Shown here: in pieces, positions 157-54,300 of the stretch
Layout of the letters: each line of letters begins with the position of its first letter
Position numbering within the stretch: the first letter of the stretch is position 1
Assembly (NCBI GenBank): GCA_037379345.1
Contig: CM074516.1
Span: 34,881,626-34,945,625 of the forward strand
Length of the DNA stretch: 64,000 nt
Direction of reading: 5' to 3'
Source of the DNA: Perna viridis
Taxonomy: Eukaryota
The notes under the pieces: generated by a model
Databases searched by the model: none
What the model was told of the DNA's origin: nothing
The model's input: only the letters and a program-made list of their open reading frames with translations
Made by a program: the position numbers and the translations under genes

Positions 157-363
157 CATTAATCCAAACCGGTCTTTGTGAACCACATCTCCCTGTACCA
201 GTTGGAGAAGTAGCAAGACTGTAGTTTCCCTCAAATCTGTACCACCCCTTGCTATAACTGGTGGACTCACAGCTATGTGAAGTTATTGAGTAACTGTAGT
301 CAGAATGACGAGATTTGTCATACTCTATAGAAGTGTAATTACTACAGGGGTCTGCCTGGGCTT
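157..363 (-). CDS. Exon E70, D8C N-half (D35, partial domain)
   Basis: 207 nt, AG/GT; EAQADPCSNY...RPVWING. Confidence 0.9.
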
Positions 364-3300: not shown

Positions 3301-6300
3301 AACATTTTTGTTCTAAGTATTGCTTGGAAACCAGACAAATGTTTGTTTTAGGTCCCTTTTGGTAGTAATAGAAGTCCAAGTAACTTAAACTTGAAGTATC
3401 ACATTTGTACCTGAATCCTTTTAAACAATGTATCTAAATTCACTAATTACAAACCTTTCATCCAGATTGGTTCAGAAGTACCACATTGTCCATTTCCTAC
3501 AGGTGTCATGGCTGGTTGGTAATCTCCCTCAAATCTGTACCATCCATCAGAGTAGGAATACGATTCACAGCCATACCCACCCATGTAGTTATAAAAGTCC
3601 ATGTGTCGGGTGTGATCATATTCTATCAGGGTATAATTATCACATGGATCCTGGGCTAGTTCTAAAAATGTATTAAAACATAATTTTAATCAACAAATGG
3701 ATGCAATGGGAATGCTGATGATGTCTTTATATTATAGGATCAACATGACATGGTGGCAAATTTCAATATTCAGAGTATTTACAGGCTACTGATAACTGTA
3801 TTCTTTCAAAAATTATTGTTTTGAATATACAATGTTGAAAATGAATGGAATAAAGAAGATAATACCTTTTTAAGTCTCTAAACGGCTCTATCTATTGTCC
3901 AAGTGATAGATTTTGTTTATGATATGTACATGGAATTTATACTGCTGTAAAAACTGTCACTGCTGAGGTCATAAAAGTTGAATAACCAATCATAATGCAC
4001 GAAAAAGTCATATGCTAATTAGATTGGAATTATTATAGTTTAACAAGGTTGATAGTCATATAACCTGCACTGCTGGTTAAATTTTACATAATAGAATGCT
4101 ATAGTTCTGTAACTCATTAAATTTGTGGTGATATGAAGTACGAATGGTATCAAACTAATCTAGAATAATTCAACAAAATCTGACAGCAACAACGTTAAAA
4201 CTGATATTAAATTTAAATTTCATAAGGATTTGAAAATACCCACCAGTGCAGTATTTGCCACAGGGTTCATAATAACTAGGAAATCTGAGTTGAGCTACAT
4301 TATAGTCCCCACAGTTCATTACAGGAACTGACCAGGTTTCATTACAGTTAGTATCATTTCCTACCATACAGGCTGTCAAGTTATACGTCTCTGCATACTC
4401 TGATGGGTACTGACCTGGAATAAACAAATATGTATACAAATTAAATTCAGTATATGTAGATATAACTACTTGTATGTCAAGACAGTTAAGTACACCTGTA
4501 TCACTGATACATTTGTAGCTTATAGTTGTGAAAGGCTGAATGCAACTGTCACAACCTGATACATGGAGATGTTTCTACACTTAACTGAAAAAAAAAAATT
4601 ACCTAAATTTATATTTTCATTGTTATAAATTATAAGTATCAGGAAAGAGCCTGAACATGATCTTCTAATAAAACTTCAGAACCTTCATTCTTAATTAATC
4701 TAAAGGAGATTTACATCACATACCAGTCACATAACACCAGATTTGAAGCTCATTCTATACAGAAACAGAAACACCTTAGTGGAAGTCTATTGAGATATTG
4801 AACAAATTAAACCAATCAAATGTCCCTGTACAATAAAGGCCATGAAACTGCATGAAAGAAAGTAAGTTGCTTCCCTTTGTTGGAACTTCACTATATCTGT
4901 GATTCTACTTCATCAGCTAATGTAATTTTTATTTGTTGGGAATGCTGGAAAGAAGGTATCTTCAAAAGTGCCTTAAGAATGTAGCTATTACTAAATCAAA
5001 CATCAAAACATCAAATTAAAAAAATATACTCACCATCCAGCCATATTGGTCTCCATGATCCACACTGTCTAGGTTCTGGTGGTGATGTTAGAATGTCACC
5101 ATCGCTAAATCTAAACCAGTTATCACTATACATGCTGCTATAAAGATAGTTCATGTTCCATTGTCTGTCACATTGTTCCATGTCACCATTCTGTAGGGTA
5201 TAGTTTACACTTCGTTCAAATCCACCCTTCAGAATATGGTGATGATGACATGGTACATCCCATGGGATATTTCCTTCCTCTGAAAAAAGATGAGATAATG
5301 ATTACTATACCATAGAATGGTGAACAAGAATTTGCGCTTACAAGGTTTTAGCTTGTAAAACCTGTAAGTTTGATTATCTCTCTATGCAGGCATCAGAAGT
5401 AACTTGACTCCTTTCAAGCAAATTTATATATGAGACAAAAACATCAATAAAATTTCTTCAAAATCCTTTGAGTGGTTCAGGAGGAGTTACACTTACAAGA
5501 TATGTGGACAGACAACTGGATGGACATGACAGACAGGCAGCCAGGAAATTCCGAAATAACCCCCCTCCCCCTCCTCCAAAAAAACCCCAAAACAAAACAA
5601 ACAAAATATTGTTTGCAGGGCTATTAAAAATACCAATTGAGAAGCCTTTTTTTAACAAAAGGATGACAATATGACTCTTAAGAGATTGTAAGAAATAATA
5701 ATCAGTAACCTTTTTACAGATAATTAGGACTCTAACCAAAGAAAATAAAATCTCTATATTTACCTAGACAGTACCGCCCACAGCTGCCTGATGACTGTAG
5801 ATGGTAAATATGATAGTCTCCACATTTCATTGTTGGTATATCCCAGGTATTGTAGCAATCCATATAAGAATACATGTCACTAGCTTCACAGGCCTTTACA
5901 TACTTTACTTCTCCATCTACTGTGGGGAGGGTGTCTGGAACAAAAAGAGGGACAATTATACACAGGTATAGTAGCAATACATATCAAAATAGAGTCAGAT
6001 TCACTGGATTACATATACTTACATACTGTAACTATACAGTGGGGGGATTATGAATGTTTATCTTCCTATCTGACCTAGCCTAAACATCGTCTGAATGTTA
6101 TTACCTCTTTTCTTTGCAGACAAAAATCACTGTATGTATGAAGGATGAACAACTAAATCTATAGAAATATCTGATATTCAGAAACAAATGATGGATGACC
6201 CACTGAAAAGTGTCACACATAGTTCCATCCGTCGTGCTGAAGCTACATACCAAACTTTAAGTTTTTTCTATAAAGATTGTCTATGTTTTGTGGCTGTACA

Positions 6301-9300
6301 AAGGTTACAGTATTGTCTAATACTAATTAATGACAGTAAACTAAATACCCCAGTAGCATTAAATCAGAGGAAAACATTGAACAACTTCATACCATTGATC
6401 CAAACAGGACTCTGTGAACCACATCTCCCTGAAGCTGTTGGTGAGGTAGCAAGACTGTAGTTTCCCTCAAATCTGTACCATCTTGAACTGAAGCTCATTG
6501 ATTCACAGCTATGTGAAGTTATTGAGTAACTGTAGTCAGAGTGACGAGATTTGTCATATTCTATAGATGTGTAATTATTACAGGGGTCTGCCTGGGCTTC
6601 TGCAATTAAAAACAATTATTCGTTAATAAAATATATTATCACTTCAATGTTTACTGTAAACTGCTCATAACCATCATTGCTGAATACCTGTTAGTCTTAA
6701 AGTTGTCATGTTAAGCATACTTCTACTCCAATTCAGTTAAGTATACTCTTACTCCTTATCAGCTAACTTGAAACTGTTTAAGTCATATGATAAACATCTT
6801 AAATAAAGAGCAAGTAAGAGATGTGCTGGGAACCCTTAAAGTGGAGATACAGCACATGTCATACAACACTACTCTGTAGAATGTGAGAAAGAATGACAGG
6901 ACCGACAAGATTATCAAAGTATAGCCCAATTCATATAACATTGCAGGGTTAATAAATGAAGGAAATTATAGAAAGCTGAATAATCAATAAAAAAATAAAT
7001 ACTAATTTTAACCATATCATTTTTACTTGCCTGTGCAGTATCGACCACAACCACTAAAATATGGTGTCAGATAGAAGGAGTTGTAACCATGGCAATGCAT
7101 AACATAAACATCCCAGGATTGTTCACAGTTAGAATCATTTCCCACCTTACAGGCTTTCATTACAGCTGTCTCTCCATACTCAGTGGGATAGGTACCTACA
7201 GAGACACAAAATAGTCAGAATCATTTCCCACCTTACAAGCTTTCATCAAAGCTGTCTCTCCATACTCATTGGGAAAGGTACCGTCAGAGAAACAAATTAA
7301 GTTTGAGTCAATCCCCACATTGTAGGCTGTCATCATAATTTGTTTTACCAATAAGCATAATAAGATGATAAAGCTCATATCATAAGGGAAAATTTCATCA
7401 AAATTTAAGGACTCATTAATAATAACTGCCTAACAATTTCAATTTCTATATAAATACATGTACAAGAGCTAAAATTCAATAATAACCCAGAAAATTCTTG
7501 CAAAAGGAAAACTTCTTATTCCATACTCAATTCACGTGAAGGAGAATTACAGATTAATTTAATAATTTCATTCCTCAATAATGCAAAAAAAAAATGTCTG
7601 TTTAGGGTTACATTCCTCCCAAAAATAGGGTAGGTCGGTCGGCATTTGCATTTTATTATTTTTTTTCATTTTATTTTTTCTCGACTAAAATTGAGCCTAT
7701 ATTTGTAAAATAGCATCATGTTTAAGTCATGAAAGTGTATGGTTTTAAGTAGAAAGTTTAATTTTTAACATACACACCTATTAATCATGTCTTTTATTAC
7801 AATACACTTATTTTTTGTAGAAATTTTGAACAAAATACAAGTACACTGTATTTACGCTTGGATTTACGTGATATAAATAAGTCTCCTATTCAAACGCTAT
7901 AGTGACCTGGTTTTTAACGTACTTTCGGTTTTACTGGAAATGATCCGTATTATATTTTGGAGAAAAAATGTATTAGGGTCTGGAGAAAAAATTAGGGTTG
8001 GTCCGGAAACCCGAAACAGACATATTTTTTTGCCCTAAGTATATAACTTACCATCGACCCATATGGGTGACCTTGACCCACACTGCAGTTGAGATGGTGA
8101 CCAAGTCAGCAAGTTTTCACTGGTACCAAATCTATACCATTGTTCCATATCAATATCATTCATGCCCATATAGTAACCATGGTAACTGTCACAGTATTCC
8201 TGTTCTCCAGGTTGGAGAGTATAGTTTACCAGTCTATTAATACTACTGGAGATGTAGTTGTAGGAATGACAGGGAGTTGTCCAACTTCTCTCCCAGGTTG
8301 TGTTCTGTGCTTCTGTAAAAAATGATAAGATTTACAGATGACAACAGTAAAGGCTAATTGAAACATTCATGTAGATATATCATCTCCACCTTTCTTGAGC
8401 ATTTGTTTTCACTACAAAGCAGCATTTCTACAAAATCACTTGAAGATAGTAAGGGCTGTTAAAAGTCTTTGAGTATTTTAGAAATTTTGTTACTGGATAA
8501 TTTAAACAGCTCTCTAGGTAGAAATCTGCCCTATATTATACCAAAGTGTCCTACTTATTTACCACTGAAAACCTTGTGATCTTTTGGACACTGTCTTTTA
8601 TATGTGAATAGCTGTCAATTATGTTGACCATAACCTCTCTATTGTATCATCCACAAGTATGATTGGGTAGCTTGTCCTCTACATTTAAATGATTTACTTG
8701 TTACTGATTGGATAACATTGTTTTTTCAAATTTAAATATTCATACTAATGGGTAAACAAAGGCTATTTTAAGATTTTAATTGAATGTTAGTTAAAAGTTC
8801 TTTTAAAAAAAATTATATGCACATTCATACTTGACATTCTAAAAATGTGTAAATTTTAAGTAATGCTGTGTGTAATAAATGTCTGAGATGGTCCCTAGGT
8901 GTTCACTAATCATTCAATTAATACAACTCACTGAGGCAACTCAAATCATTGCTAAACCATTTTGAGGCATCTCAAATATATTTTCACAGGAAACCAAAGA
9001 CAATAGAAAAAAATGAGATAAATTTCAAAGGATTTCTTTAGAAAATTTAAATGCATAATGGTTTTATATTTAGAAAGACATGTGCATTTTCCCCACTTAA
9101 AGGAAATTGCAAGTTGAAGACATGGCCATTTTGCAAAAGTGTGACAATGAGTAACTTATAGCTCTATTTTAAATTTAAAATTAAATTTAACAATGTATGT
9201 GCATCTAATTCTTTTTAATTGAAGTTTTCAGACTGTTTTGTTTAAGAATATTTCGATGAAATGAACAATACTATCCAATCAGAAATAAGTAAAACACTTA

Positions 9301-12300
9301 AATGTACAGTACAAGCTACCCAAACAAACTGGTGGTTGGTATAATATAGAGGTTAAAGTCATAATAATTGACAATTATAGACCGGTTTGTAGTAAGTTGG
9401 TTAGCATGCCCAATATATACTTCCACGAGGTAGAACTTGGGTAGAACAAAAGAATTTTCCTCGCGGAAGTGTATATAGAGCATGCTCTATGTATGCTCAT
9501 TGACTACCCCAACGTTAGCACAAAAGGGTCTATTCAAACTTCAACTACATTGTCCTTAAAATCACACAGGTGTTCTGTGGTATATAAGTATGAAACATTG
9601 GTATAATGCAGGGCAGATTTATACCTAAAGAGCTATTTAAATTATTCAATAACCTACATAGATTTGTATTGAAATTGGTACTGGTCTATTTCAACAAGCT
9701 GCAAACATACCTTAATTATATCTGCCAAACAATACCATGTGATTTTAGATACATGTAGATGTCAAACATACCTGTACAATATCTGCCACACATTCCATTA
9801 TTATTTATGTACATAATGTTATAGGATCCACATTTCTTGACAGGAACAGTCCAGCTGGAGGAACATGGTGATCCAGAATCAGATCCCTTACAGGCCTTCA
9901 CATATGATATTTCTCCATCAGTTACTGGTAATGATCCTGGAAGGACATATTAGTATTTAAACCACCCTGTGTCAACTCCTATATTCAGTTTAAAGACTGG
10001 CAGCATCTGATTGACTAAAATTTGTGAGAACCAGAAACAAACTTCATTATGATATATAATATCTCAAAGTAGAAACACTTCAAGCAAAAAAGACCCATAT
10101 TGAACATTCATTCTTTTGCAAACTTTCCATTCAACATCAACTGTATTTGAGAATCAATATACAAAACAAGCAATTCAAATGGCTTCACTAGACCACAAAG
10201 TTCATAACTTTTATTGGTCTTTAGAATAAATGTATCTAACCTTTCATCCAGATGGGATCACTAGACCCACACTGTCCATACCCCACTGGACTCATTGCTG
10301 GTCCATAGTCTCCATCAAACCTGTACCATCCTTTGGAGTAGTAATCACAATTAGAACCTCCCCAGTAGTTATAATAGTCCATGTGTCTGGTGGAGTCATA
10401 CTCTATCATGGTGTAGTTATTACATGGGTCCTCTTGTGGTTCTGTATGATGTAAAGTTAAGCAATCAGCAGTATACAATACTTGGATGAAGTATCTTTAG
10501 AAATAATAAATATAGAACAACAGCAATGTAAAACATAAAGCAATCCAAGTCATGTAACATGCCTGCATGACCTTGACCTTTGGACTACAACCTTAAAATT
10601 CAATAAGGTATTAGACTTTTATATTAAGTTAATTCAAAATTCATTCATGGATGTTGATGCTACCCTGTTTAAATGGTGTTAAGGTCAGTTGGAAAACTGT
10701 ACTACATCTCTGTGCTACATCATTAAGAAAAAATCAAGATACTATGACTAGAGGATGGTAAGGGTTATTTTTAGCAACATGTCTGGTCTTTTTATTCTCT
10801 GTTTGATTTTCAATTATCAATTCTTTATATATTTTGTGTTTACATGAAATTAAGTGACTCTGCATTTTTCTTAAAAGAAAAAGCTAATTCTTAAAATTTT
10901 ATTTTTCTCACTGATATATTGACATTGTTTCTTGCACTTCATAGATTTTTATTTTTCATGATATTTTTTGTAGATGTTTATTTCACATGATTCCATTTTA
11001 CAACCCATTTAAGGAATGCTTCTAATTTTTTAACAGGTTATATGAAAAAAAACTGTTACTTTGCAGTATATAAAAAGTGTAAACTGGCCCAAACCAGGTA
11101 ATTTCTTACAACCCATTAGCTTCACCATTAATAAAAAGTATACACTGGCCCAAATTAGGTTATATTTGTATAACCAGCTAAACAACTAAAAACATTCCAT
11201 ATTAAACTAATTTTTAATGGTTGATAGTCCAAATATTGAAAACTGTCCCATAATTTTGACATTATTTTGTTAAGGATTATTTGAATCATGGAGTGCGTCA
11301 AATTGACATTAATAACTTTTAAGTACCAAGCCAGTTTATACAAAATAACCTGGTTTGCTGAAAGAGAAGCCAGCAATCAGAAGGCACTTATCAAATTAAT
11401 TTTTAAACAAATACCTTATATTACCACTTAAAATTCCCTGGATTATACAGAATTCTTACCTGTACAATATTTGCCACAGCCTTGGAAGTATGGTGTCAGA
11501 TGAGCCACATTAAATCCATCACAATGCATGACATAGGTATCCCATTTATGTTCACAGTCGGAATCATTGCCAACCTTGCACACCCTCATGTGTGACATCT
11601 CAGCATATTCTGTGGGATAGGTACCTAGAAGGGAAATTTAACAGAATAATTGCTCATCTCACAAATCCTCATGTTGGACAGTTTAGCATACTCAGGGTAG
11701 GTACAAAATAAAATATTGTAATATGCATGAGGTCGCCTTGTTATTGTTAACGTGATAATATAATCTTAAATTTGGGAATAATTCAGGTTCATTCAAATAT
11801 GCCCCAAGCACAAGTCCAAAAAACACTATTTGTGATGTATATTTTTGGGGTTCTGCGTTAAGAAGAGTCATATTGCATGTGAAAAAACATTACCTATGAA
11901 GAGTACTGACAAGTTTGATTTATTATCCAAATGTCAAATATTGATTATAGTATATTTTTAACCAAGTAGCATGACACCGTTTTCAATGTTTATGAATGAT
12001 GTCATTTCAGGTTTTGACAATGGCATATCATAAGTTTTAAGGTTTAAGATATATGTTCACCTTGATATTGTTTAATGCAAATACTGACTTCTAGAATGAC
12101 AGCAGTTTTGATATTTATTCCGATATTTCAAACCTAAAAATGTTTGGGCCCATGGACTATTTGTAGTGATGTATCTCACCACTTCACATAGCAACAGCGT
12201 TAATGGAAACCCTAGCTGGTTAATTTAAACTTTATAGCACAAGAACAAGATCATGGAAGAGAAGCACAGGGATCGTTAAACAATTAGGCAATAACATCAG

Positions 12301-15300
12301 GGACATATTATGAGCCAAGGTTCCTTTCTTTGCTTATGTGTATGAATAATTTCAAAGGTATAAATACGGAGTAAATTTGCCAAAGATGGCAGATTGCATT
12401 TGGCTTCAGTGCTGTCAACATCATTTGAAATACAAGGAAACAGCCATGGGAGGACTTAATGCTGCAAGAAACCATCATTAATGCAATCTCCCACCACACA
12501 GATACTGTCGTTTGACATTTATTGCATTTTACAATATCATACAATATTTTCTGCCAATATAGGAGCACCACCGGAGGAATTTAATGGGAACCATACTGAG
12601 TGAAATACAAGCATTATTTATGGTGGATAAGAAATAAGAAGGGACTTCAGGATGCATGGTTAATATTTTTAAGGATTGTTTGATGTGGAAAAGGAACTAG
12701 GAACTATTAACTTTAGTTGGTGAATACCAGCGCTGAAAGCTAATTAGTATTATAATAGGACTAGGATGAGGCAACACAACAAGTCACATAAGGTGTACAT
12801 TTTATTAAAGACACAGATACTGCTATCACTAGGGGTCAATATCGTTATATATCCTGCTGAATAGAAAACACATTTATTGTAATAAATTTATCATTCATTT
12901 TTAATTGGTTTGTTCTACATGCAGATTCCTACAGTATACATTGAAACATAATATTTAAAACTGAGAGTCATCTTATCAATCGGACCACTCACCATACCTG
13001 TTACAATATAAAATAGAATCATTCCCCAATAGATTTAGATCTGCTTCATAATCATAGGTTTCAATGCCTGTTAATCAATATACCCATGGTAAAATCAGAA
13101 CATACTTACATACAACAATAACAAAACTTCCTGAATAAAAAAAAATTATTTGAGGGAAAGGTTTATATCTTCTAATTACCGTCAAACCAGATAGGATATA
13201 GGGATCCACAACTCAACTGTTCTGGAGGTCGATTCAGGACATTCTCATAATTCTCAAATCTGTACCAATTATCACTACTGATCTCCCCATTAGAGTAACC
13301 ATAGTAACCATAGTGATACCAATATTCATTGTCACATGATTCATACTCTCCTGATTGAAGGATATGATCTACTGTCCTCTCAAAACTACTGGGTACAACA
13401 TGGTGGTTGTGACAAGGGTAGTCCCATGATGACGAATTGGTTGTATTCCTGGACTCTGTAATTAAGAAAGATGATAAATAGATTATAGTATTATATAACC
13501 TCCCAAGCTTCACTGAGCAGGAAATCAAATACAAGGCCCAAATTACCATAGTGATAATATTCAAAGAAAAAAATTCATTAACCCAATGATAATGCAGCTG
13601 TAACCATATAATAATTGCATTAATGTAGATATCAAATAAAGAAAAAATGTCACTGATGCCTAAAGTTCAACCCCCTAAAGATACATCATCCCTACAAATA
13701 CAATAAAACTGACTTAGCATCCTTGCAGATGTACAAGCAAACCTAGACAGTATAAAATCCCTGCAGATGTACTAAAACCTAGACAGTATATCATCCATGC
13801 AGATGTACTCAAACCTAGACAGTATATCAGCCCTGCAGATATACTCAAACAAACTTAGACAGTATATGATCCCTTCGGACCTAAACAGAATATCATCCTT
13901 GCAGATGTACTTAAACAAACCTAGACAGTATATGATCCCTGCGGACCTAAACAGAATATCATCCCTGCTGATGTACTCAAACCTAGACAGTATATCAGCC
14001 CTGTAGATGTACTCAAACCTAAACAGAATATCATCCTTGCAGATGTACTTAAACAAACTTAGACAGTATATGATCCCTGCGGACCTAAACAGAATATCAT
14101 CCTTGCAGATGTACTTAAACAAACTTAGACAGTATATGATCCCTGCGGACCTAAACAGAATATCATCCTTGCAGATGTACTTAAACAAACCTAGACAGTA
14201 TATGATCCCTGCAGACCTAGACAGCATATCATCCACACAAATATACTCAAACAGACCTAGACAGTATATCATCCACACAGATATACTCAAACAGACTTAG
14301 ACAGTATATCATCACCGCAGACCTAGACAGTATATCATCCACACAGATATACTCAAACAGACCTAGACAGTATATCATCACCGCAGACCTAGACAGTGTA
14401 TCATCCACACAGATATACTCAAACAGACCTAGACAGTATATCATCTCCGCAGACCTAGACAGCATATCATCCACACAAATATACTCAAACAGACCTAGAT
14501 AGTATATCATCACCCCAGACCTAGACAGCATATCATCCACACAGATATACTCAAACAGACCTACACAGTATATCATCCACACAGATATACTCAAACAGAC
14601 CTAGACAGTATATCATCCACACAGATATACTCAAACAAACATATACAGTATATATCATCCCTATAAATATTATAAAACTGACCTAGACAGTATATCATCC
14701 ACACAGATATACTCAAACAAACATATACAGTATATATCATCCCTATAAATATTATAAAACTGACCTAGACAGTATATCATCCACACAGATATACTCAAAC
14801 AAACATATACAGTATATATCATCCCTATTATAAAACTGACCTAGACAGTATGTCCTCTCACACATGTCATCATTACGTAGATACATAATCTCCTCACTAC
14901 CACATTTCATCACTGGTACACTATAACTCCAGGAACAAGGGGAACTATCTGATGAATGACAAGCTCTGAGGTATGAAATTTCTCCATCAATTGTAGGGAG
15001 GCCTCCTGCAAAACAATAAAGTATATCTATGCAGTACTGGCAGCTACTATAGTTAAAGTTTTATAAATTAAAAATTGTGAACTCATATGCAAATTTTTGT
15101 TTTGTGTTTGCCTAATAATGCAGGGGAAATTCAGAATTAGTGAATTTTGAGGGGGGAGATTACTGTACAAGTATCAATTTTTGTAATAATTTTTTTGTAT
15201 TTTCTTGGTGAAGTAATAAGTGTAAATAGTAGTACCTGCCAATTGGATTATTAACACTATGAATTACTTATCATTATTCAAAACTGTGAAAACCGATACC

Positions 15301-18300
15301 TGTGAACATATTCACTAAACAAATCCATGATAAGAAGCAACCAATGAAGTTAATATATGTTTTCTAGTACATGACTTCCTGAAAATATTGAACAACATTC
15401 TATACCTGACATTGAATAGAAATCAGAAATATGTAATATTAATAAGTAAGAGTTACCTTTCAGCCAGAAAGGACTAGATGATCCACATTGTCCTGGACCT
15501 ACAGGAGTTGTGGCTAGTTTATAGTCTCCTTCCATACCATACCAGCCTTTAGGTCTATATGAATGGCAATAATCTGAGCTATAGGGATCATAATTATCTG
15601 CATGTGTTGTGTTGTCATATGGTATCACAGTATAGTTATCACACGGGTCCACAGCCAGCTCTACAATAAGGAGTCTTAATACAATTATCAAAGTTTTAAA
15701 CATTAAGAATCCTAACTACATGACATTGTAAAACATTAACCTATACATTTTATGGAAATCAAATAATCATTAAAAAGGTTATGTAAAGCATGGCATCCAT
15801 TAATCATGTGAACATTTTGTTCTGGGATCTTGACCTTTGACCTTGAACAAAGAGCAGTCACACCTCTCTTCAGAGACCTTCCAAGGGAAACAGGTGGTCT
15901 CCTTACACAGGTTCATAGACCTTTCTACAGAGACCTTTCAAGGGAGACAGTTGGTCTTCTTACACAGGTTAAAAGAACTATCCTCAGAGACCTTCCAAGG
16001 GAGACAGTTGGTCTTCTTACAGAGGTTAATTTTACATAAAAATGCACAACATAATGATACCAAAATTAATAAGGCACAAAACACTGCATTTCTTATATTT
16101 ACAACTGATAACTGTCTTGCCAAAAGAAAAGAACAAACACCTTTAAAAACCTTACCCATACAATAACGTCCACACTCGTTAATATCAGGAGTGAGGTATG
16201 CCACATTAGTGTCGTTACATTTCATGACGTAGACATCCCAGCTGTGTTCACATTCAGATGTATTAGTGTTCATACATGCCTGCATTAAATTCATTTCTCC
16301 GTATGAACTTGGATAGGTACCTAAAACAGTAAAAACATATTTTTTTATATTTTTACTGTAGAAGAAAAATTTAAGTTCTTTTTCTTTGTGGATTTTATGA
16401 GTGCGAAAACAAATCCCACAATACAACATCCCTATAGGAAGATTAATACAAAATATCAGCAACCTGTGAGTGACTCAGAAAAAATGTGACAAAAAGTTTG
16501 TATATTACCACTGTACAAGGAAAATTTAAATTTTTGGCAAACTGGAAATAGATGTCATACGAGTAGGAAAATGCATCCCACAATTCAGTATACACATACA
16601 TGTATAAAGCTTTGTCTGGATTATCAACACTCAGTAATTTACAGAAGCTGAGAATTTTGTTATGAAAAATGTGTTACTGAATGAGGGAATGACAGAATGA
16701 TACAGGTAAAACAGTATACCCCTCTTCCTAGGAAGCTTGGGAAAACAATATCAAACTATACATGTATAAGTGTTAGCACAAGTCTGCATCATCTTAATTT
16801 CTCCATAAGATCTTGAGTAAATACCTATAAAGTTTTCCTTGGATTTCAAAATGTTTGAAGTTTCATTCTGGTATTTGCATAATGTGAAAAAGTTTTGTTA
16901 GGATATGAAACTTTTTCCATGGTTTAAGGGTTTAACTTCTCAAATATTCAATTTCTTATACTGGACCTTTGAAGTTTTCAAATGATTATTAAAGATGACT
17001 CAAGAGTCATCTTGACTTATCTTCAGCTGTTTACTCACCATTGAACCAGATTGGATACCATGATCCGCAATCTCCTGGTTCAACTGACTCAGTCAGAAAA
17101 TTTTCACCATTACTAAATCTATACCATCCTTGTGTAGAAACTGTGTCAGAAGAACTGTAGCCATGGTTACTATCACAGTAGAACCAATCATCATACTGAA
17201 GTGTGTACTTAGAAGATCTCTCAAAACTACTGGGTATTTTTCTATAGTCGCTATACATGTTATCACTGTATCTATAATCATAGCAAGGAGTGTCCCAAGT
17301 CTGAGTCCAAACTGGTTCCTTGGGTTCTGTAAAAATATAATCAATAAATTAAAAAAGGTTTTTTGCTTTTAGGAAATACCTCCCTCTTTTTTAGAAACTA
17401 AGTGTTTACTTTTATAACAAAGACACCCTGTGATTAATAAAATGGCCTTTGAACCCTAAAACTATTTTTGAATGGCCTCATATAAAAAAATTGCTCATTT
17501 ATACTGTTAACAAACTTCTGGAATCTGCATGTCTTGTTTTGTTTTCACTTTCTGTTTACTTTTATATTGCCAGAGTATAGACTATTTTGCTCTGCCTGTG
17601 TACTATGTTGTTTTGCCGCCAGTTGCAGCCAGCCCTGTTGTGTGAGGGTTTCCTTGTCGTTCATTGAAGACCCATAAGTGGCCTTGAGCTGACATTTTTC
17701 ATCCCTGTGGGTTTTTTTTTCTTTAACATATTCACCATATCCACTCTCCTTATATTTATTACATTTTAAGTTAAAAATTAATTTTTGCAATTTTTGCAAA
17801 GACAAAACCCTTGCAAAAAAATCTGAAAACCCTTACCAATCAATGGTTTTAACCACTCGACTACAGGTAGATCTTAAAAAATAAATCTCAGCAAACTTAA
17901 ATTCAATCCTTATAAGACAAAATAGGCATATGTGGTTTACAATAGGAATTAAATACTTAAAGTACCTTAGTATCATAATTCAATACAACAGTACATACCC
18001 AGACAATATCTGCCACACATTCCTCTTTGTTTCAAGTAGAAGATGTCAAAATCTCCACACTTCATCACAGGGACACTCCAGTTATACTGACAAGGATTAG
18101 AACCGGATACTTCACAGGCAAACATATAGTCTATTGTATTCTCCTTGGTTGGGAAGTTTCCTGAAAAATGTATGTTTAGATTGTAATCATTCATGGAGAG
18201 AATGAAAGGATGACTTTTAATTTTCCTTAAGAAGTCTGAAATATTCCTGATGTCCTTGGATATCAATGTGTTCAGATGCCATTTGCCATCATCAGATACA

Positions 18301-42300: not shown

Positions 42301-45300
42301 ATCATTACAACAAAATTTTGAAGAACAGACAAGGTAATTCCAATATAGCACCTGCATACTGAATGGGGGTATGAGAATACATAGGTGGGTAATACAAAGC
42401 ATGGTATCAGTCTGTTGTTTAAAATATGACTCAGTCACATCAAAAGGCATAATGAGACATGAGTATGTATACACTTATAAAAAACTCCATTGCTGACTGT
42501 TTACTCCAGGTTTAACATCAAGGTTGTAAAGAAGAGTTATAACAACCTCCTTGGTGAGGATATAAATACAAAATAGTATCCATATCTTACCATTAATCCA
42601 GACAGTACTGTATGACCCACATGTTCCTGTACCAGTAGGAGAAGTAGCCAGACTGTAGTTTCCTTCAAATTTATACCATCCAGGACTAAAATTGGTAGAT
42701 TCACAGTGGTGTGATGTTATAGTATGAGCGTAATCTGAATGACGAGATTTGTCGTACTCTATTGAAGTGTAGTTATTACATGGGTCTGCCTGTGGCTCTA
42801 AAATTTAATAAGACCCTTTGCAGTTAGAAGAGTTGCCAGATGCTATATGATTAAGCCATTACTTTGTATTGATATAATACCAGTATAATTTAACTATTTG
42901 CATTACAAAAACAAAAGCAAACTAAGGAATGTTAAATATAGGTTATTTTTAGTACCCTTAGTTTAACACAAAGCCCATAACTAGTTCTTTCTTACGATGG
43001 TATTGAACTGCAGAAATATTATATAATGCATTTTTAAATGAAAATAGAAAAGTTGAAAAGTAAGCTTTTTACATAAAAGTCATTTAATAAAGCATAGAAA
43101 CCAAAAGTTACTTAAGTTCTAAAGTAGTTACCATGGAAACTTACCAGTGCAATAACGTCCACATCCACTGAAGTAGGAATTCAAATAAAAAGCATTGTAT
43201 CCATGGCAATTCATTACATATATATCCCAAGATTGTTCACAGTTAGAATCATTCCCCACCTTACAGGCTTTCATCACAGCTGTCTCTCCATACTCAGTGG
43301 GATAGGTACCTAAAGAGAAACAAAATAAAGTTAGAATCATTCCCCCCCTTCAGGTTTTCATCACAATTGTCTCTCCATACTCAGTGGGGTAGGTTCCTAC
43401 AGAGACACAAAATAAAGTTAGAATCATTTCCCACCTTACTGGCTTTCATTACAGCTGTCTCTCCATACTCAATGTGATAGGTCATACAGAGACACAAAAT
43501 AAAGTTAGAATCATTCCCAACATTATAGGCTTTCATCAAAGCTGTCTCTCCATACTTAGAGGGATAGGTACCTACAGAGAAACAAAATAAACCCCAAACA
43601 AAATTATGCCCAACTCTTTAGCGTTCCATGATGTTCGTGTTACTTACATATATTTAAGAAAAATATTACCTGTAATGCAAGATTTTTCAAAGATTATTTG
43701 ATGCAATTCAAAAATTATTCAAAAGAACAAAACGTCAAATCTTACCTTGAGCCCATATAGGATACCATGACCCACACTGTCCTTGATCTGGGGTTGAGGT
43801 CAGGAGATTTTCATGGCTGCCAAATCTGTACCATTGTGTCATGTCAATTTCAACCATGTAACCATTGTAATTATAGTAACCATCACATTTGCCATTATCC
43901 CCTTGCTGTAACCTATTATTGACCAATCGGTTGATGTTACTATTTAAAGTGGAGTATGACCAACATGGTGTGGTCCAGGATCTTTCCCAAGTTGTATTCA
44001 AAGCCTCTGTAATAATAAAACCAAAACTGTCTCTTTAAAAAAAATTTGGGGTGCTGTCGTCATCTGACCAATAGCCAGAAACAAAATTTTAATTCAGTCA
44101 TCAGACATTGTGCCCTATTTTGTTAAGTATATGAATTGAGTAATATTAATAATGGTAATAATAACCTATACAGTTGAACCTCTATGTGGCACTCGGAAGA
44201 GTCAAAATCTCAGATAACTCGAACTAGTTTCAAAGTCCAGCAAAACTCCTCTTTCTTTAATACAATTTTACCTTGGATGACTCAAACTCTTGGAAAACTC
44301 CAGGTTTTTAATCAGTATCCTTGATAGGACTTTGAGGTTAATTAATCCTGACCTCTTGACAAATAAGACAAATAATTAGTCAGCAAACTGATTGCTTTAT
44401 TAAAAACCATGATTGAAGTATCTTTCTACAATGATTAGCGTGGCTTTTGAAATTATTTGTTGACACTCTTTGATTTGTGTATTTAATTAATCAAAAATAG
44501 CGTGTGTAGTGAAAAGAAACCAATTTTATTAATCACATATCAAAATTCACACTATCGGTGATATTGGAGATTTTGGTAAAAATAAAAAGAAGATTACAGA
44601 TGAATTGTAATGGTATCTGAACATTTAATTAAACATCAAACAGTTGATAATAAGTGTATTTCAATGACTACATTCATTTCGCTAGTGAACCTGAAATTTA
44701 ATCAAAGTAATGTAAAGTATATGGTTTGGTGATACTCCTTATTGTGAGTCATACAAAATATGAACTATGTAGAAAAAATAGCAAGGATTTTTTCCTAAAA
44801 CACTTGGTGCATTCAGTACTTAAAACATGATATACAACACACAAAATATCTTCCGATACAGAATGCAAGCCATCACGAAGTACCCTATAAAATGAAGTAT
44901 GAGTACATGTGGAATGCAAGCCACCACGAAGTACCCTATAAAGTGAAGTATGAGTACATGTGGAGCGCAAGCCACCACAAAGTACCCAATAAAGTGAAAT
45001 ATGAGTACATGTGGAACGCAAGCCATCATGGAGTACCCTATAAAGTGAAGTATGAGTACATGTGGAGCGCAAGCCACCACGAAGTACCCTATAAAGTGCA
45101 GTATGAGTACATGTGGAACACAAGCCACCACGAAGTACCCTATAAAGTGAAGTATGAGTACTTGTGGAATGCAAGCCACCACATAGTACCCTATAAAGTG
45201 AAGTATGAGTACATGTGGAACACAAGCCACCACGAAGTACCCTATAAAGTGAAGTATGAGTACATGTACAAACATAACAAATGATGCAGAAACAATCATT

Positions 45301-48300
45301 GACCAAACTATTTCCAGGTTATGCTCGACCTCAGATGACTCGAACCTTGAATAACTGAAGCATTTTTGCTTGGTCCCTTTAATTTCAACTTAATGAGGTA
45401 TCTGCAACTCATCCCCTGAGGTTTACAATGAATTATGTTATAGGCACCCCTTACCTTGACAATATCTGCCGCACACCCCTGAGGTTTAAAATGCACTATG
45501 TCAAAGGCACCCCTTTCCTTGACAATATCTGCCACACATCACCTGAGGTTTAAGATGCATTATGTTAAAAGCACCCCTTACCTAGACAATATCTGCCACT
45601 CATTCCCTGAGGTTTACAATGCATTATGTTATAGGCACCCCTTACCTTGACAATATCTGCCACACATCCCCTGAGGTTTAAGATGCATTATGTTAAAGGC
45701 ACCCCTTATCTAGACAATATCTGCCACTCATTCCCTGAGGTTTACAATGCATTATGTTATAGGCACCCCTTACCTTGACAATATCTGCCACACATCCCCT
45801 GAGGTTTAAGATGCATGATGTTAAAGGAGCCACATTTCTTTACAGGAACAGTCCAGCTGTAAGAACAGGGGTTTGAGCTTCCACCCTGACAGGCTTTCAT
45901 GTATGTTATCTCTTGGTCTATGCCTGGTAAATGACCTGCAAACAATAAAATAAGAAGATATAATATTAGTAGAAATATAAAAAGTGTCCAAGTCCATACA
46001 GATATTTAGGTCAAAGGCCAATGTGCTGTAAGACCTTATAGATACATAGAACATACACATTTTTTTGCAGAATTTGTAAATAAACTCAAAATCATCAGAA
46101 ATAGATTGATTTTTACTTAAAAAAAATGGCATACAATTAAAAAATAATGTTGCATAAAAGACAATTTTAAAATATTTTAATTATTAATATTGATAGTATT
46201 GATTGCAAAAGTATAAAATATGCTTAAATATATTTTAATCTTGAATTAAAATCCTATTCAATTCCACGCTTTGTTACACCTATCTGATACCAAATTCTCA
46301 TGTTTAGATTCAGTAAACCAGTTTATACTTAGTGAGATTCTAAAGACCATATGGCTAACAGTAATGCAGTACAGGTCATTTTGAAACAGTAATCAAGGGA
46401 ACCAAGGTTTTAGCAGAAATCAGAAGAATGTAATCCAGGGACAAACACCAGACATGAAATATATACATATGTTCCTGACTATACAAGTACCAGCCAAATA
46501 CCTATACAGTATAAGAGTTCATATCATACCTCAGTATATAAACATCAATACAAAATTTTCTACAGTAAAATTGCTATTTTTCTCCTTTTTCATTGTTCGT
46601 CTATTGAGCAGTCCATAGTTTTCAGACTATTGACCGGCAATGTCAACTGCTTTCGTGGATTTTTCGTTCCGTCACCAGATTGGACTAAAGTTCTATGTTT
46701 ATTCGGAACACTGACTTCACCCTCTCTTAATGAAAACCCCGAAATTATCTTGCACTTTAACACAGATGAAGTTGAATGTTTGCTAGACAATATTCAAATG
46801 TGTACATTGTTGCTGTTCTTTATCTTACAGACACCATGTAATTGATGTTGAAGGCTGCAAATTCAAATTCCTATGAATTACTGGTGAAAAGGTCAATGAG
46901 ACAACATTCAGATCAAAATATTGCCAAAAGATGCATGGTTTTCTGGGTTTTAAACATTTTGAGGTGATGAGGGGAAAATATCAGTGACATTCAAATTGAA
47001 AATATTGTAAAAAACGTTTTTCTGGGTTATCATTTTGAGATGATCATTCAACTATGAACAATGGAGGGACATGGAGTAAACGTATTACAAGTCTAATGTT
47101 TTCGGTATAATAAAATACTTAAAGACTGGGTATTCAGGAAATAGGAAGTTTATATTTATATAAATATATCAAATCACACTTCTTCTATAAATAACCTAAA
47201 GGTTACATAAAAACAACCAACAATGATACCAAAATGATTTAATGATTTTAGTACCCTCACCACTGGACAAAATTTTAGGCTGAATGATACTACTACACAA
47301 AAATCCGGAAAACTGGTTGTTATACAGAATAATGGAAGGACAGACTGATGACCAAGAGTGAAACTATATGCCCTGACCACTTCATGGCAAGGGCATAAAA
47401 AAGAAACCAAACTCTCTAAACCTTAACAACACTCCAAGAATTAAAAAAAATTACAACCTTGTAATATATTTTTGAATCCGCTTCTGACTATGAGGCTACA
47501 TCAAAACAACCAGAAGGGAATTTTAAGCTGAATGATAACAGTACACAAAAAAACTTGGATTGAAAGAGTGCAAGTCTTGAGTTTTACCAAAAGGTTCACA
47601 CATTCTTTTAAACAGTTGAATCTTTAAGCATTGATTTATCTTCTGTTACTGTAAACATATCAATATTTTTAGCAATGATTTCAGGTATTCTTCATAACCC
47701 ATAATAGTTGGTCACAAACCTTTCATCCAGATAGGTTCAGATGTACCACACTGTCCATTTCCTACAGGTGTCATGGCTGGTTGGTAATCTCCCTCAAATC
47801 TGTACCATCCATCAGAGTAGGAATACGATTCACAGCCATACCCACCCATGTAATTATAGAAGTCCATGTGTCGGGTGTGGTCATATTCTATCAGGGTATA
47901 GTTATCACATGGATCCTCTGCTGGTTCTAAAAATGCAGCAAGTAAATTAACAATTATAGCAATAAAATTTGGAAAAAAATTACTTATACATGTCTCTTTC
48001 CTTTATGGTCCTACAGACCACTAATTATAAAACTGTTTATAGAGGACAAGTCCACATACAAGTAATCAATAAGAATTTGACCTCTGACCTAAGAAGCAGC
48101 CAGAGCCTGATTTTAGTTTGACAGGAACTGTTACTGTTTCACAGAGTAAGGATCTTTACTAGTGTCATATTTTTTTAACAAAAACAAAATAGTTATCAGT
48201 TTACAACTCACATCTTAAAGGTTTGTAAATTTATGAAGAAAAATAAATTCTAGTTGATGTAAAACTGTAAAAGGCATAATTATTCATAAAAATATCAGTA

Positions 48301-51300
48301 TATTCAACTTTGTCATCTTACAGATTAGATCTGCATCATATTACTATAGTATTTTTTTCTATATGAGAATAGAATATGAGTTCTAATTAACACAGATGTT
48401 ATATAATTTGTTTCAGAAAGAGTGTTATGTGGAATATCAAACTCTCTCATTAGAATTATCAAGATATTCAACATAATGTATTTACTATCAAATTCCTATG
48501 TAGAAATTATTCCAAGGGTGATATAGGAAAATCATAACTGGAGAAATGTTGAATACTGCCATAAATATCAATGCTGAAAATAGAAGAAATGATGTGTCCA
48601 CAGGACATAGATGCCCCAGCCATCACTAAAAATTCAAGGAATATCAACAGGAGGTAGATGCGGCAATGAGCTCACCCACAACACAATTAATCATACTGAA
48701 GCTTTAGAACAAATCTGAGAACTTTGAAAGTTTTTGCAAAACTGAACCTAATAGCTTACATATTGAACAATGATGCACACCAAATCCTCAACCATTCACA
48801 GGAAAGGTTTCTCAGTTTTATGGGATGAAAATTTTTGAAATCCTTATATACAGCAACAAAAAAACTTACAGCAAACAAAAACTTGATGTATCCATCACTG
48901 AGCTTAAAAAGTTTACCAACTCTACAACCCATTAAGCTGAAGCAATAAACCAAATCCAAATCATTTCCACGAAGAGCTGCCAATTTTCATGCAACAAAAG
49001 TTATGGGGAAAAACTGACAAGTCAGGGATATAAAAAAACCCATTACAGTTATTTTTGGAAATGAAAAACTAACCAGTTCAAAGCATTGTATTTATACATC
49101 AATAAACAGAAAAACATGAACCCAAATATTTCTGAATTTACTGTCCACTTTTTCTAAGAATACTCACTAGTACAATATTTGCCACAGGGTTCATAATAAT
49201 CTAAGAATCTGAGTTGAGCCACATTATAATCCCCACAATTCATTACAGGCACTGACCAGGTTTCATTACAGTTAGTATCATTTCCAACCATACAGGCTGT
49301 CAAGTTATACTTCTCTGCATACTCAGTGGGGTACTGACCTGGAATAGTTAAATATATCCATTATTATAGTAACTACATGCACTCCATCAAGATGCCACCC
49401 ACAATACTATTTAATACTCAATATCCAGGCATTTTTGTTCCAATGATGTAAGAATGTTACCTTCAATATATTAGAAATAATGAATAGCTTTGCCAAGAGC
49501 AGCATAGTACAACTGCAGCATATTGAACTCTGTTCATTTGGGGAAAGTGTCAATACAAATTAAGTTTTGACACACAGAAACATAGTGACTTACAGTTCAT
49601 TATGGACACAAAAACTGGTTTGGACAAAATACTGCACAAAATGTGAACTTCAATTAAGGAGGTAGACCAAGGGTAAGAAACATAACTCTTGAAATCAGCG
49701 ATATATTTGTATAATATTCAATTTCACCAAGGCCTGTCAAGCTTTCATGTGAAAAAGAATGAAATCTGTCCATGTTACTTTGATGCTTACAGGAGACTGA
49801 TATAAAATGCTGAATACAAACATTCCAATGATTTGAAAGAGTTGTGTCCCTTACCATAGATCTACATCCTTAAGTTGAAAGAAATTCTGCTTTATGGGTG
49901 TTCATCAAAGTCCTTTGCTTTCAATCCCTATAATTTTGAAAACTGTAAGAAATATCTGAAATCTCACCGAAAAAACACAGGCAGGGATTTTCATAAGGAA
50001 TCTAATGACCAATATTAAAAATTTTCAAAATCAGACCAAAAACAAAAAACTTTATTTTTTGGGTGAATCCCACCCCCACTCTGACAACTTACTACCATAA
50101 GAGACAACTGAAATTTGAATGAAAAATGCAGGCAGAGATTTTCATGAGTCATCTAATATCTAAATTTTAACTAAATCAGACCTCAAATAAAAAAGTTGAT
50201 TTTTTGGGATACAGCCTGTATTGTACCCTTACAACTTTGAAACTGTAAAAGATACGACTATTCTATAAGAAAAAACTCTTATAACAGAATTTCAAAAAGA
50301 ATTACATTGTCGACAGAATAATAAAGAAAACAATAAACTATTTCTAGCCATTCTAATTAAAACACATATTTCTCCTTTAACCCCTTATTTTCAAAGGAGA
50401 TAAGGCAAAAGGCTAAAAATAACTATCTGTCCCTCCTCCATGTCCCTAGGAACAATGTATATAAATTTCAAAAACAGTTGATAAGTTTTACTCAAGTTAT
50501 CATAAAAAGACACAGATGACAAAGATGTCCTTAAAATTTCTCTATGTTGTATAAAAAGATCAAATTCATTTCTATACAGTTTTCTTTATAGTCCAATGAA
50601 CAGATCTGATATAAGACCCATGACTATTCCTTAATTTTGTGTTACATACAACAAGAAATTTCATAATCAATGTTACTTAGTTACAAACTGACTGGGGCAA
50701 TTATAAGATTTGCATACTGTAAACTCAAGCATGACAGCCGAGAGATGTATGTCAGGATAATTACTTAACTTATATTTTTGTTGTAGCTATATAAATAATG
50801 GTTTATTTTCCTTTCCATTCTGAAGAAGCCTTAGGCATAAATTGATACCTCATAAAGAACACAAGACGGGAATAATCAAGGTGTCTAATATATACATGTA
50901 TATATCTTCACAACAGCTCGATAAACTTGGTAGTTTATTGCTCTGTGGTGTCGAAGTCAGGGTCCTTGTTCTTGGTAAGTATACTTCTGTATGAATTAAG
51001 AATCATCCACCCCTTACCTCTTTCTCATCAGATATATAAAATGAAACATAAGTGCTATGATACCTATTTATTAACTACAAACTATCAAATCATTTATGTA
51101 CATTAGAATAACTTGGGACTACAAGCTGCATAAACTAATAAAAACCAAACAAGAGATACCCCCTTTTTCCATGAACTAACCAATCAAAGATCAAAACTTG
51201 AGGGATGAGATAAAAATGGGTATGAAAATATACACTTTTTATTGAGAAAGTCCAAAGTTATAGAGAATAATATAAGAAAATCATAAAAATAAGTAGAAAT

Positions 51301-54300
51301 ATGAATTGATTAATAATTTCTCATGACTGCTCTTCGTTGTCAACAACGTAATCAATTTGAACTTTGAATAAAGCAAATAAAAATATTCGAAAAGAGGTTC
51401 AAGTAGAGAAAAAACCATACGTTTGCAATGTAGGAATTAAAGATAACTCTTACATTATAACTATTACATTATCATACGTCAGTATGGGAAAAGAAAATCC
51501 ATATGTCGGCATGGTAAGAATTGAAAAAAACCCATGCTTCAGCATGATTAGAGAAATCATACGTTAGTATGGTAAGAATTAAAAATAACTCATACGTCAG
51601 CATGAGTAGAGAAAAAACACCGTGCGTAAGCATGATTAGAATTAAAAGTAAACCCATGGGTCAGAATGAGTAGAGATAGAGTAATCAAGGGAACCAAGGT
51701 TATAGCGGTAATCAAAAGAATGAAATCCAGGGACAAAGACCAGACATGGAAAACAGACATACACAACAAAGAACATAAAGTAACTAAAATCATACACACA
51801 AAGTAACAAAAGCAAATGAGCAACTCGGAAACCATATGTTAGCATGGTAAGAATTTAAATTAACTCATACATCAGCATGAGTAGAGAAACCATACATTAG
51901 CATGGTAAGAATTAAAATTAACTCATACATCAGAATGAGTAGCGAAACCTATTGAAAGCCTGATTAAATATCTACTTTTTCACTGCCATGAGATGAAAAT
52001 TCTGTATGTAAGTATGTAAAAAATAAGTTATAATACTACAAAAATATAAAACAAAAATCAAAATACTAGAAATTATATAAAACAAGAATCACATTTAACT
52101 TCAAGTACTAAATACACAAAATTAAGAAGCTATAAGTACTAAATACACAATATTAAGAAAATATATGTACTAAAATCACAATACTAATTAATCTCCAGAG
52201 GCATTAACAACTAAGAAGAGAAGTGGGGATGGTGGTGGTTTTTTCTATCTCAATAAACCAAAGCTTGAATATTGATCTGACTGCCCTAATTATCAAATCG
52301 AAAAAGAGGCTAACATGTGCAAAAAGAGGCTGTTTGAGGTTCTTGTAAGGGGGTTTATCTTAGATCCAATACAAGTAAAGCTGCTTAATAGTAAATAAAT
52401 TGATATTCCTTTACTAGGTAATATGCTCAATTAAAATAAACTACAATTATTATAGTTGAGAAGTTATGGTCCAATACTGAAAATATCACAGTCATTGATA
52501 AAAAATGAACCACATACTGGACTCTATGTCAGCAGCAGCACATCCAATATAGGGTTTAAAGTGCAATTTAGAATCATTCAATATTATCATTTATTGTACA
52601 GAAACTTGTATAAGGGCTAATATATTAAAACATATGAGGTACACAAAGCAATTTTAAATTTATACATAGGTTGTTGTGAAAACTGTTGATATATAGACTT
52701 AGCTTAACATTGCTGCTATGAGTGAGTTCACTGGAGAAAGACCTTATATTTAAGGAGTGACTGTTATATTTTTTCAGTCAATAAGGAAATAACCTCAACC
52801 ACGTGGTGCACAATAAATGACCTGCGTAGCAGGTTATTTTCAAGTGTGCACCATGGGCATAGAGGTTATTTGAAACAGACCGAAAAAATATACCAGTCAT
52901 TTCTTATAATTTAATGTTAGTATCTAAATATATGGAGTAAATCAGCAAAAATGGTTGATGACATCACCATGCAGCCATATTGGTCTCCATGACCCAGACT
53001 GTCTAGGTTCTGGTGGTGATGTTAGAATGTCACCATCACTAAATCAGACACCAAGACAGATAAAATTTAATACATATACTCACCATCAAGCCATATTGGT
53101 CTCCATGATCCACACCATCTAGGTTCTGGTGGTGATGTCAGAATGTCACCATCACTAAATCAGACACCAAGACAGATAAAATTGAATACATATACTCACC
53201 ATCAAGCCATATTGGTCTCCATGATCCACATTGTCTAGGTTCTGGTGGTGATGTTAGAATTTCACCATCACTAAATCTAAACCAGTTATCACTAGACATG
53301 CTGTTATAAAGATAGTTCATGTTCCATTGTCTGTCACATTGTTCCATGTCACTATTCTGTAGGGTATAGTTTATACTTCGTTCAAATCCACCCTTCAGAA
53401 TATGGTGATGATGACAGGGTACATCCCATGGGATATTACCTTCCTCTGAAATGTATAATGTATTGAGTAAAGATGACAAATATTATAAAGTTTGAGCAGG
53501 AGATATCTCCATATAAGGGTACACAATTATGTAGGAAAGAAATGATAAAACACATCAATATTAATTATAAAATGATAATGGCAGCTAGAATCAGTAGACA
53601 GGTCATTACAGATATATCTCAGGTCAAGCTGACTTACCTAGACAGCATCAACCACAAATCACAGAGGACTGTAGGTAAAATGCATGGTAATCAGGAAAAG
53701 TCATTAGAGATAGTACTGACCAAACATCCCTGAGAACTGTAGGTAAAACACATGATAATTGGGACAGGACATTAGAAATACATCTCAGGCCATGCTGACT
53801 TACCTAGACAGTACCGTCCACACATCCCTGAGGACTGTAGGTAGAATACATGATAATCAGGACAGGTCATCACGGGTATATCCCAGCTGTAGGTGCAGTA
53901 TGTACCATAATGCATAGAGTCTGCTTCACAAGCTTTAACATGATGTAACTGGCCCATGGTTGTTGGGTAGGTGTCTACAAGATAATGTAATGTAATTTAG
54001 TACATGTACAATTACTTTACATTAAAATTTAATTAGCTTGTTTGATGATTTTACCCCATGTTTTCACTACATAATAATTACTTTTCCTTCAATCTGTTAA
54101 TTTTGATTTTTTTTATTTTGATTTTAAATTTGTTTCATGCATATCTCAATAACTATATACAATTTTAACTATGACATCCAACTTAAAAGAACTGTTTCAG
54201 CTACAATCAATTATTGTTTTGTATTTTCAAATTTTTGTACAAGCTTCATTAACACTGATGCTTAAACTGTGACCTAAATGAAAATGTTTAATATGCAATT

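Follow-up and report, generated by a model that had tools for sequence, protein, structure and literature searches.

The window analysed here, 64,000 nucleotides (nt) of Perna viridis DNA (GenBank assembly GCA_037379345.1, contig CM074516.1, positions 34,881,626 to 34,945,625 of the forward strand), is the middle of one minus-strand, spliced and expressed gene with a VWDE-like layout. Our analysis suggests that this gene probably encodes 48 alternating D10C-like domains, a Ser-rich stalk, a VWD/EGF-like region and a predicted membrane anchor, and that a block of 12 domains in the array, likely produced by unequal crossing-over, has likely been kept alike by exon-sized gene conversion. A previous sequence-only reading had proposed a hierarchical repeat code in this window, and it was supported in part: the higher-order repeat was confirmed and the functional code was not supported. 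A six-frame translation combined with a splice-site scan revealed 70 minus-strand exons in the window, alternating between the N-half and the C-half of a domain. All 70 were stop-free, in phase 1, a multiple of 3 in length and bounded by AG..GT/GC ends (the acceptor of exon E59 was placed at 9936). With the flanks from the same genome added, the array comprised 96 repeat exons, forming 48 two-exon domains and 19,224 coding nt. Domains were numbered D1-D48, so that the window holds D5C-D40N and E16 of the earlier numbering is D13N (E16, 53445-53200; E40, 26077-25832; E64, 5279-5034). GC-AG donors were found at D23C (window 27829), D35C (window 7031) and D44C (outside the window). The gene exceeds the window at both ends: in window coordinates repeat exons run from +76877 to -20705, followed to about -36800 by Ser-rich (173 Ser in about 395 residues), VWD/EGF-like and transmembrane exons. 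Downstream exons matched residues 714-1534 of the Mytilus VWFD protein VDI67677 in order (tblastn, 11 segments, 33-80% identical). The VWD match scored 38 bits in isoform P0005, the EGF-like region gave a single weak EGF_TEN match (17 bits), and the tail carries a hydrophobic segment followed by basic residues, from which the anchor is predicted. RGKR and RRKR in the tail are possible furin sites, and the length of the predicted protein is estimated at about 7,700 residues.

Raw RNA and DNA reads were mapped to window positions 20400-26300, and splicing elsewhere was deduced from copy-specific letters at the joints. This interval received 241 RNA reads, nearly all exonic and oriented as minus-strand RNA, and at least 5 of its 8 introns were seen as CT..AC joints. 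Furthermore, the letters at some joints fit, by eye, the exon starts of D38, D42 and D44. An apparent backward joint from 26077 to 21106, a candidate for exon scrambling, was rejected; its reads probably came from other copies. Two points weigh against the one-gene layout: the RNA data are short reads, with a single transcript through 96 exons beyond their reach, and a scan for the start/signal-peptide exon gave three candidates, none of which was confirmed. The duplication in the array could also have been created by the assembly, as the 99.2% identity of a 4.1 kb tract present twice (see below) might indicate. However, beyond the tract the exons differ by 3-18% and the introns are unrelated, and the RNA joints carry copy-specific letters. 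In addition, a DNA run from an independent study covered all 30 bins and yielded a contig crossing the tract end, the tract being covered about twice as deeply as the rest (113 vs 51-66, depth not being a copy number). The probability of an artefact is therefore negligible, and it was rejected for the array as a whole.

The alternation of two domain subtypes was as strict as had been claimed: it was unbroken over 48 domains, and the even domains formed one clade (support 100) in the N-exon tree and in the C-exon tree. Above it, the 12 N-terminal labels recurred twice in the same order, at E16-E39 and E40-E63, with equal lengths in 23 of the 24 paired exons (the exception being E20/E44, 261/255 nt), exactly as the earlier reading had described; the mean identity of the 12 pairs D13-24/D25-36 was 93%. 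The parts of the array in the window are as follows.

157..63744, minus strand: D5C to D40N of a single 48-domain gene (70 of its 96 repeat exons), from exon scan, profiles and splicing reads
59763..63744, minus strand: D5C-D8, diverged upstream domains
53804..58935, minus strand: D9-D12, older 4-domain unit A1-B1-A2-B2, 59-73% identical to members of the 12-mer
26562..53445, minus strand: first full 12-domain unit, D13-D24 (E16-E39), 4806 coding nt
5764..26077, minus strand: second full 12-domain unit, D25-D36 (E40-E63), 4800 coding nt, 81-100% amino-acid identity to the first
157..5279, minus strand: D37-D40N, four domains a, b, c(N)/k(C), l forming a recombinant unit, with no third 12-mer
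774..2310, minus strand: D39, N exon of type c and C exon of type k, an 8-domain register jump

Over the 48 domains, mean identity was 31%, 45%, 57% and 69% at lags 1, 2, 4 and 12, respectively. None of 5000 shuffles that preserved parity reached the lag-12 value (null 52 +/- 2%); in the same shuffles lag 4 gave p = 0.004 and lag 8 p = 0.08. Within D13-36 the value at lag 12 was 93% vs 31-57% at other lags (lag 2 47%, lag 4 51%, lag 8 57%). The trees grouped copies 12 positions apart, the point on which the earlier reading had staked itself beforehand. Among window domains, the nearest N exon lay 12 or 24 positions off for all 24 of D13-D36 and the nearest C exon for 22 of the 24; against all 48 domains the nearest exon was 12 off for 19 (N) and 20 (C) of these. 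The block is thus a tandem unit whose copies are closer to each other than neighbours are, a higher-order domain repeat of the CR1/NBPF type. By best matches the 12-mer reads A1 B1 A2 B2 / A1 B3 A3 B4 / A2' B1 A2 B2. Its 4-domain period is only partial and patchy, because b-j, c-k and d-l are alike (71-81%) but a-e reach 55% or less and f-i stand apart. The proposed sub-period of about four domains is weak within D13-36, and a strict 4-domain period was rejected. The upstream 4-domain unit that had been noticed is present (D4-D7 of the earlier numbering, D9-D12 here), and its synonymous sites are near saturation (proportion of synonymous differences, pS, 0.65). Positions g and h (and f) of the 12-mer have old relatives, at 54-62% identity, in D5 and D6 (and, beyond the window, D4), and D1-D12 in general are older (44-73% identity). 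The restart supposed at E64 was only begun: a, b and c(N) recur, k(C) and l follow, and a third full 12-mer was rejected, the type switching to k(C) in D39 and a-h restarting outside the window. The informative sites of D39 were divided 80 vs 3 in its N exon and 3 vs 15 in its C exon. After D37-D40, D41-D48 represent a-h, and their identity decays from 88-94% to 56-61% toward the array end.

A homogeneous middle with decayed ends is the pattern expected of unequal crossing-over, and the 12-domain block likely arose by such crossing-over or ordinary duplication. Multi-domain duplication in the middle of an array is usual in repeat proteins, with the two-domain unit commonest (PMC1553488). Such a hierarchy is in itself nothing unusual among repeat proteins. 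A two-domain cassette, common to Mytilus, would have given rise to 4-domain units and these to the 12-domain unit; if like exons alone can pair in crossover or conversion, parity would be kept, with a register of 12 and sometimes of 8, 4 or 16. The earlier reading compared the array to titin super-repeats, and the 12-domain unit might be a selected ruler that matches a periodic partner, as in titin and nebulin. In its favour, purifying selection has maintained 12 distinct position types through two full copies and one partial copy. However, the full copies number only two, and the 4-domain recombinant breaks the register at D39 yet is expressed, as the exon starts of D38, D42 and D44 in the RNA joints indicate. 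Relatives moreover use periods of 2 (Mytilus VDI75281), 3 plus spacer (XP_063404491) and 1 (a coral protein). Titin and nebulin share the expansion of several domains in mid-array (PMC10665226, PMC1553488), whereas there is no sign here of a conserved period or partner match. We regard a selected ruler as quite improbable, and the titin-like functional super-repeat or code was not borne out. Because the relatives use other periods, the number 12 is most likely historical, and probably without function.

The likeness of the two full units resides in their exons. In 20 exon pairs (D13-22 vs D25-34) DNA identity was 82-97%, with a pS of 0.25 (0.09-0.44) and a ratio of nonsynonymous to synonymous change (dN/dS) of 0.15. 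The introns were alignable over more than 30% in 1 of the 20 pairs, and there via copies of exon edges. Identity had fallen to the background level no more than about 25 nt from the splice sites, and exons with a pS of about 0.1 were still flanked by unalignable introns. When pairs with exon-edge copies were excluded, the remaining 17 intron pairs scored like 51 unrelated pairs, matching a divergence (d) of 0.6 or more; in our simulations of introns, which were simple, a d of 0.3 left 13-20 of 20 pairs alignable. The earlier likening to satellite higher-order repeats therefore applies in outline only (homogeneous middle, decayed ends), as the introns are not repeated: the whole-unit likeness covers 4.1 of about 21 kb, and 19 of 20 other intron pairs are unalignable. 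The tract in question and the non-coding copies of exon edges are located as follows.

25025..29119, strand not assigned: copy 1 of the 4.1 kb tract (D23N-D25C with introns), 99.2% identical to copy 2
4229..8319, strand not assigned: copy 2 of the 4.1 kb tract (D35N-D37C with introns)
53037..53159, minus strand: tandem non-coding copies of the D13N exon edge in the next intron (an example)
22291..22554, minus strand: tandem copies of the D27C exon start in the upstream intron

The two tract copies are offset by 20.8 kb, i.e., 12 domains, and differ by 26 substitutions and 5 indels. Their synonymous pS was 0.013 vs 22/2870 in introns, both from small numbers.

These patterns argue that the repeats are likely kept alike by exon-sized gene conversion. 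Synonymous differences were commoner in the outer 10 codons (61/331 vs 98/774, p 0.015, and p 0.012 in a second set), and old exon pairs had no such edge excess (p 0.62). Furthermore, D39, D17 and D16 each had an N exon and a C exon with different nearest relatives (p < 0.005), and such discordant trees indicate exon-limited gene conversion. It is known that conversion can become confined to exons after introns diverge. The simplest reading would be an old duplication, repeated short conversions within exons and one recent long exchange. Several results weigh against conversion: 5 of 11 triplet tests were without discordance and 2 more were marginal (p 0.035-0.04 before any correction for multiple testing), the clustering test was marginal (p 0.038) and the heterogeneity modest (p 0.02). 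In the homogenised zone, GC content at third codon positions was no higher than upstream (0.36 vs 0.37-0.41), giving no support for biased conversion. Besides, the evidence consists of within-genome patterns in one species, and intron turnover may add to the contrast. An old 12-domain duplication might even suffice with no conversion at all, if exons were held by purifying selection that includes synonymous sites while introns were rewritten by indels and transposons. The dN/dS of 0.15 agrees with that, intron lengths vary up to sixfold, with retroelement and minisatellite inserts, and a simulation at d 0.45 with many indels likewise lost alignability. However, synonymous sites are free to drift, as the pS of 0.65 in older pairs demonstrates, and selection on exons accounts poorly for exons of pS about 0.1 beside unalignable introns, for the excess of synonymous change at exon edges and for the conflicts between N and C trees. 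In addition, D11 and D35, with 67% identity between their N exons, have a non-coding exon-edge copy in common at 95.5% identity, and synonymous change in the recent tract was no slower than intron change (small numbers). An origin without conversion is accordingly unlikely in our judgement.

Exon-sized conversion would make this gene a natural case of repeat homogeneity after intron divergence, with 20 exon pairs and a recent tract exchange as internal clock. Concerted evolution of domain repeats is rare and often tied to host-pathogen roles (PMC5100051). Our literature search, whose coverage mostly lay outside subscription journals, found no study clearly describing exon-only homogenisation in an intragenic repeat. 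NBPF/Olduvai triplets and the ensemble repeats of spider MaSp2 (PMC9779670) are likewise higher-order repeats of exon-delimited coding units; however, the introns of MaSp2 are homogenised (97.6%), whereas here they are unalignable outside one tract. In 13 of the 96 exons, non-coding tandem copies of the exon's own edge were observed in the adjacent intron, also at 45400-45710 and 43390-43570, and such copies are nearly the only intron DNA common to the repeats. The unit upstream of D27C also precedes D11C, D15C, D23C and D35C (82-96% identity). These copies could provide decoy splice sites. Intronic minisatellites were seen at 13715-14864, 23375-23787, 44750-45390 and 61811-62348. Broken frames that we take to be retroelement- or transposase-like lie in introns and upstream (-2247 to -2894, -5000 to -7400 and 81880-86160 in window coordinates).

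The repeated domains are an 8-cysteine, D10C-like variant of the GP2/uromodulin domain. Profiles built from the N exons (23) and the C exons (21) matched adjoining stretches of GP2 (PDB 7P6R), 34-94 (E 2e-5) and 98-150 (E 0.012), respectively. An odd-even pair of the Mytilus relative VDI75282 was modelled with a predicted local distance difference test score of 89 and a predicted template-modelling score (pTM) of 0.76. This model matched GP2 and uromodulin and nothing else (Foldseek E 4e-10), with a Z of 18.9 and a root-mean-square deviation of 2.8-3.0 over 130 residues. Eight cysteines were present in 47 of the 48 domains, and the two that are missing relative to D10C align with C3 and C6 of GP2, which bond to each other as one disulfide (PMC8930769). 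With both absent, the domains are short of one whole disulfide vs GP2, and they deviate from the ten cysteines and five disulfides of D10C proper. Besides GP2 and uromodulin, D10C/D8C proteins include OIT3, and also VWDE (PMC8930769). The fold, the cysteine framework and, in even domains, the sequon at the N65 position are shared with GP2/uromodulin, whereas the 8 cysteines and 48 tandem copies vs one are not. Against the assignment it should be said that the fold was modelled on a relative of this protein, that a Pfam scan of half-domain exons gave no match for any of 23 N exons or 21 C exons, and that full Mytilus relatives scored 17-21 bits against PF23283 (D8C_UMOD), for which the cut-off is 27. 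D2-D48 have no extra cysteines before C1 for the disulfide-bonded beta-hairpin of GP2, and instead of a ZP module, which was absent, the tail matches a VWD-type protein. D8C clusters also came up in an Atlas search, at 0.86-0.87, which is no more than a lead.

Whether the alternation reflects a pair of domains as structural unit was weighed separately; on balance we lean towards such a pair. The linker from odd to even domain is invariably 7 residues long (24 of 24), also in Mytilus VDI75281, and the even-to-odd linker has 11, 15 or 20. Each of the 24 even domains has an N-glycosylation sequon at the position of GP2 N65, which carries the FimH-decoy glycan; none of the 24 odd domains has it. 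Residues specific to the class are constant in 23-24 of the 24 even domains, across lineages that are about 45% identical. The motif 'LP..D.E' given earlier for the even C-half turned out to be loose (L in 15/24, D in 18/24). When superposed on GP2, the VDI75282 pair (pTM 0.76) spanned model residues 24 (in the odd domain) to 262 vs GP2 42-181, which exceeds D10C-only matches by about 12-16 residues and brings part of the odd domain onto the hairpin region of GP2, a weak hint. When the odd and the even Mytilus domain were entered as two chains, complex prediction run without alignments gave 0.21 and 0.02 vs a mark of 0.34, and a five-domain model had a pTM of 0.40 with one domain poorly built; neither result speaks for or against rigid pairs. 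The competing explanation, that the alternation is a frozen accident of an amplified two-domain cassette with no pair structure or division of labour, is less probable but deserves serious weight. Odd and even domains are 31% identical and the introns are unalignable, so homologous exchange shifts the count by an even number, and recombination of like with like would keep parity without selection. Moreover, alternation is lacking in the arrays of two Mytilus proteins and of a paralogue in this genome. However, an accident leaves unexplained the fixed 7-residue linker beside a variable one, the residues fixed in even domains, the sequon found in even domains only, and an array that begins odd and finishes even. 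The domain dimer proposed earlier as functional unit thus gains from linker, sequon and Mytilus alternation, and loses from the parity that recombination alone would keep.

As for function, the repeat exons hold 114 N-glycosylation sequons. Tentatively, the protein may be a very long, heavily N-glycosylated cell-surface or shed antenna, which would present microbial lectins with a multivalent glycan decoy or a barrier. Each even domain would display a glycan at the GP2 decoy position, and 24 covalent odd-even pairs would form the antenna. It is a more doubtful proposal that the pair is a covalent GP2 decoy module, in which the odd domain would replace the beta-hairpin and shield a high-mannose glycan on the even one, giving a 24-valent membrane-anchored decoy whose half-variants are shuffled by exon conversion. 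Two points count against the decoy function in general: its derivation from one conserved sequon and analogy, and the lack of the beta-hairpin and ZP module of GP2. The main alternative would be a matrix or adhesion role like that described for VWDE (PMC7390686). The gene offers a testable candidate for invertebrate mucosal defence, since the only established job of the domain is that of a pathogen decoy in mammals.

The closest named relatives were Mytilus proteins. Among the best 150 relatives listed, the longest D10C-like array has at most 17 domains vs 48 here, and a word-index search with one exon found no longer proteins, which is weak evidence. VWDE-like Mytilus VDI67677 shares D10C-like domains followed by VWD and a putative EGF-like region, with a tail 33-80% identical, and VDI75281 shares alternation, linker and sequon; unlike the present protein they have about 5 domains and no 12-domain unit. 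CR1 with its long homologous repeats (PMC2189104) is also a type I membrane protein with multi-domain repeats (4 x 7 short consensus repeats) and mosaic identity. However, its domain is a different one, whereas the gene described here has 12 two-exon domains per unit, two full copies and no known ligand. A literature search mostly outside subscription journals found no study of invertebrate tandem D8C/D10C arrays. Tandem D8C arrays were observed elsewhere in loach (17 + ZP-C), coral (11 + ZP-N) and tilapia (5 + SRCR), and also with kringle, WSC or lectin domains (relatives P0003, P0004, P0007 and P0011 scanned). In the same genome, a second D10C-like array gene of 13 domains lies on the minus strand at C6:22,044,600-22,064,700; it contains three copies of a 3-domain unit (3755 bp, 98-99% identical, introns included) and lacks the odd/even alternation. 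Eight further weak D10C-like exon matches were seen on contigs C1, C5, C7, C10 and C14. Beyond the gene, neighbouring exons on the opposite strand (-41200 to -48300, plus strand) presumably represent Ly6/three-finger, Thr-rich and C-type lectin segments, which they resemble.

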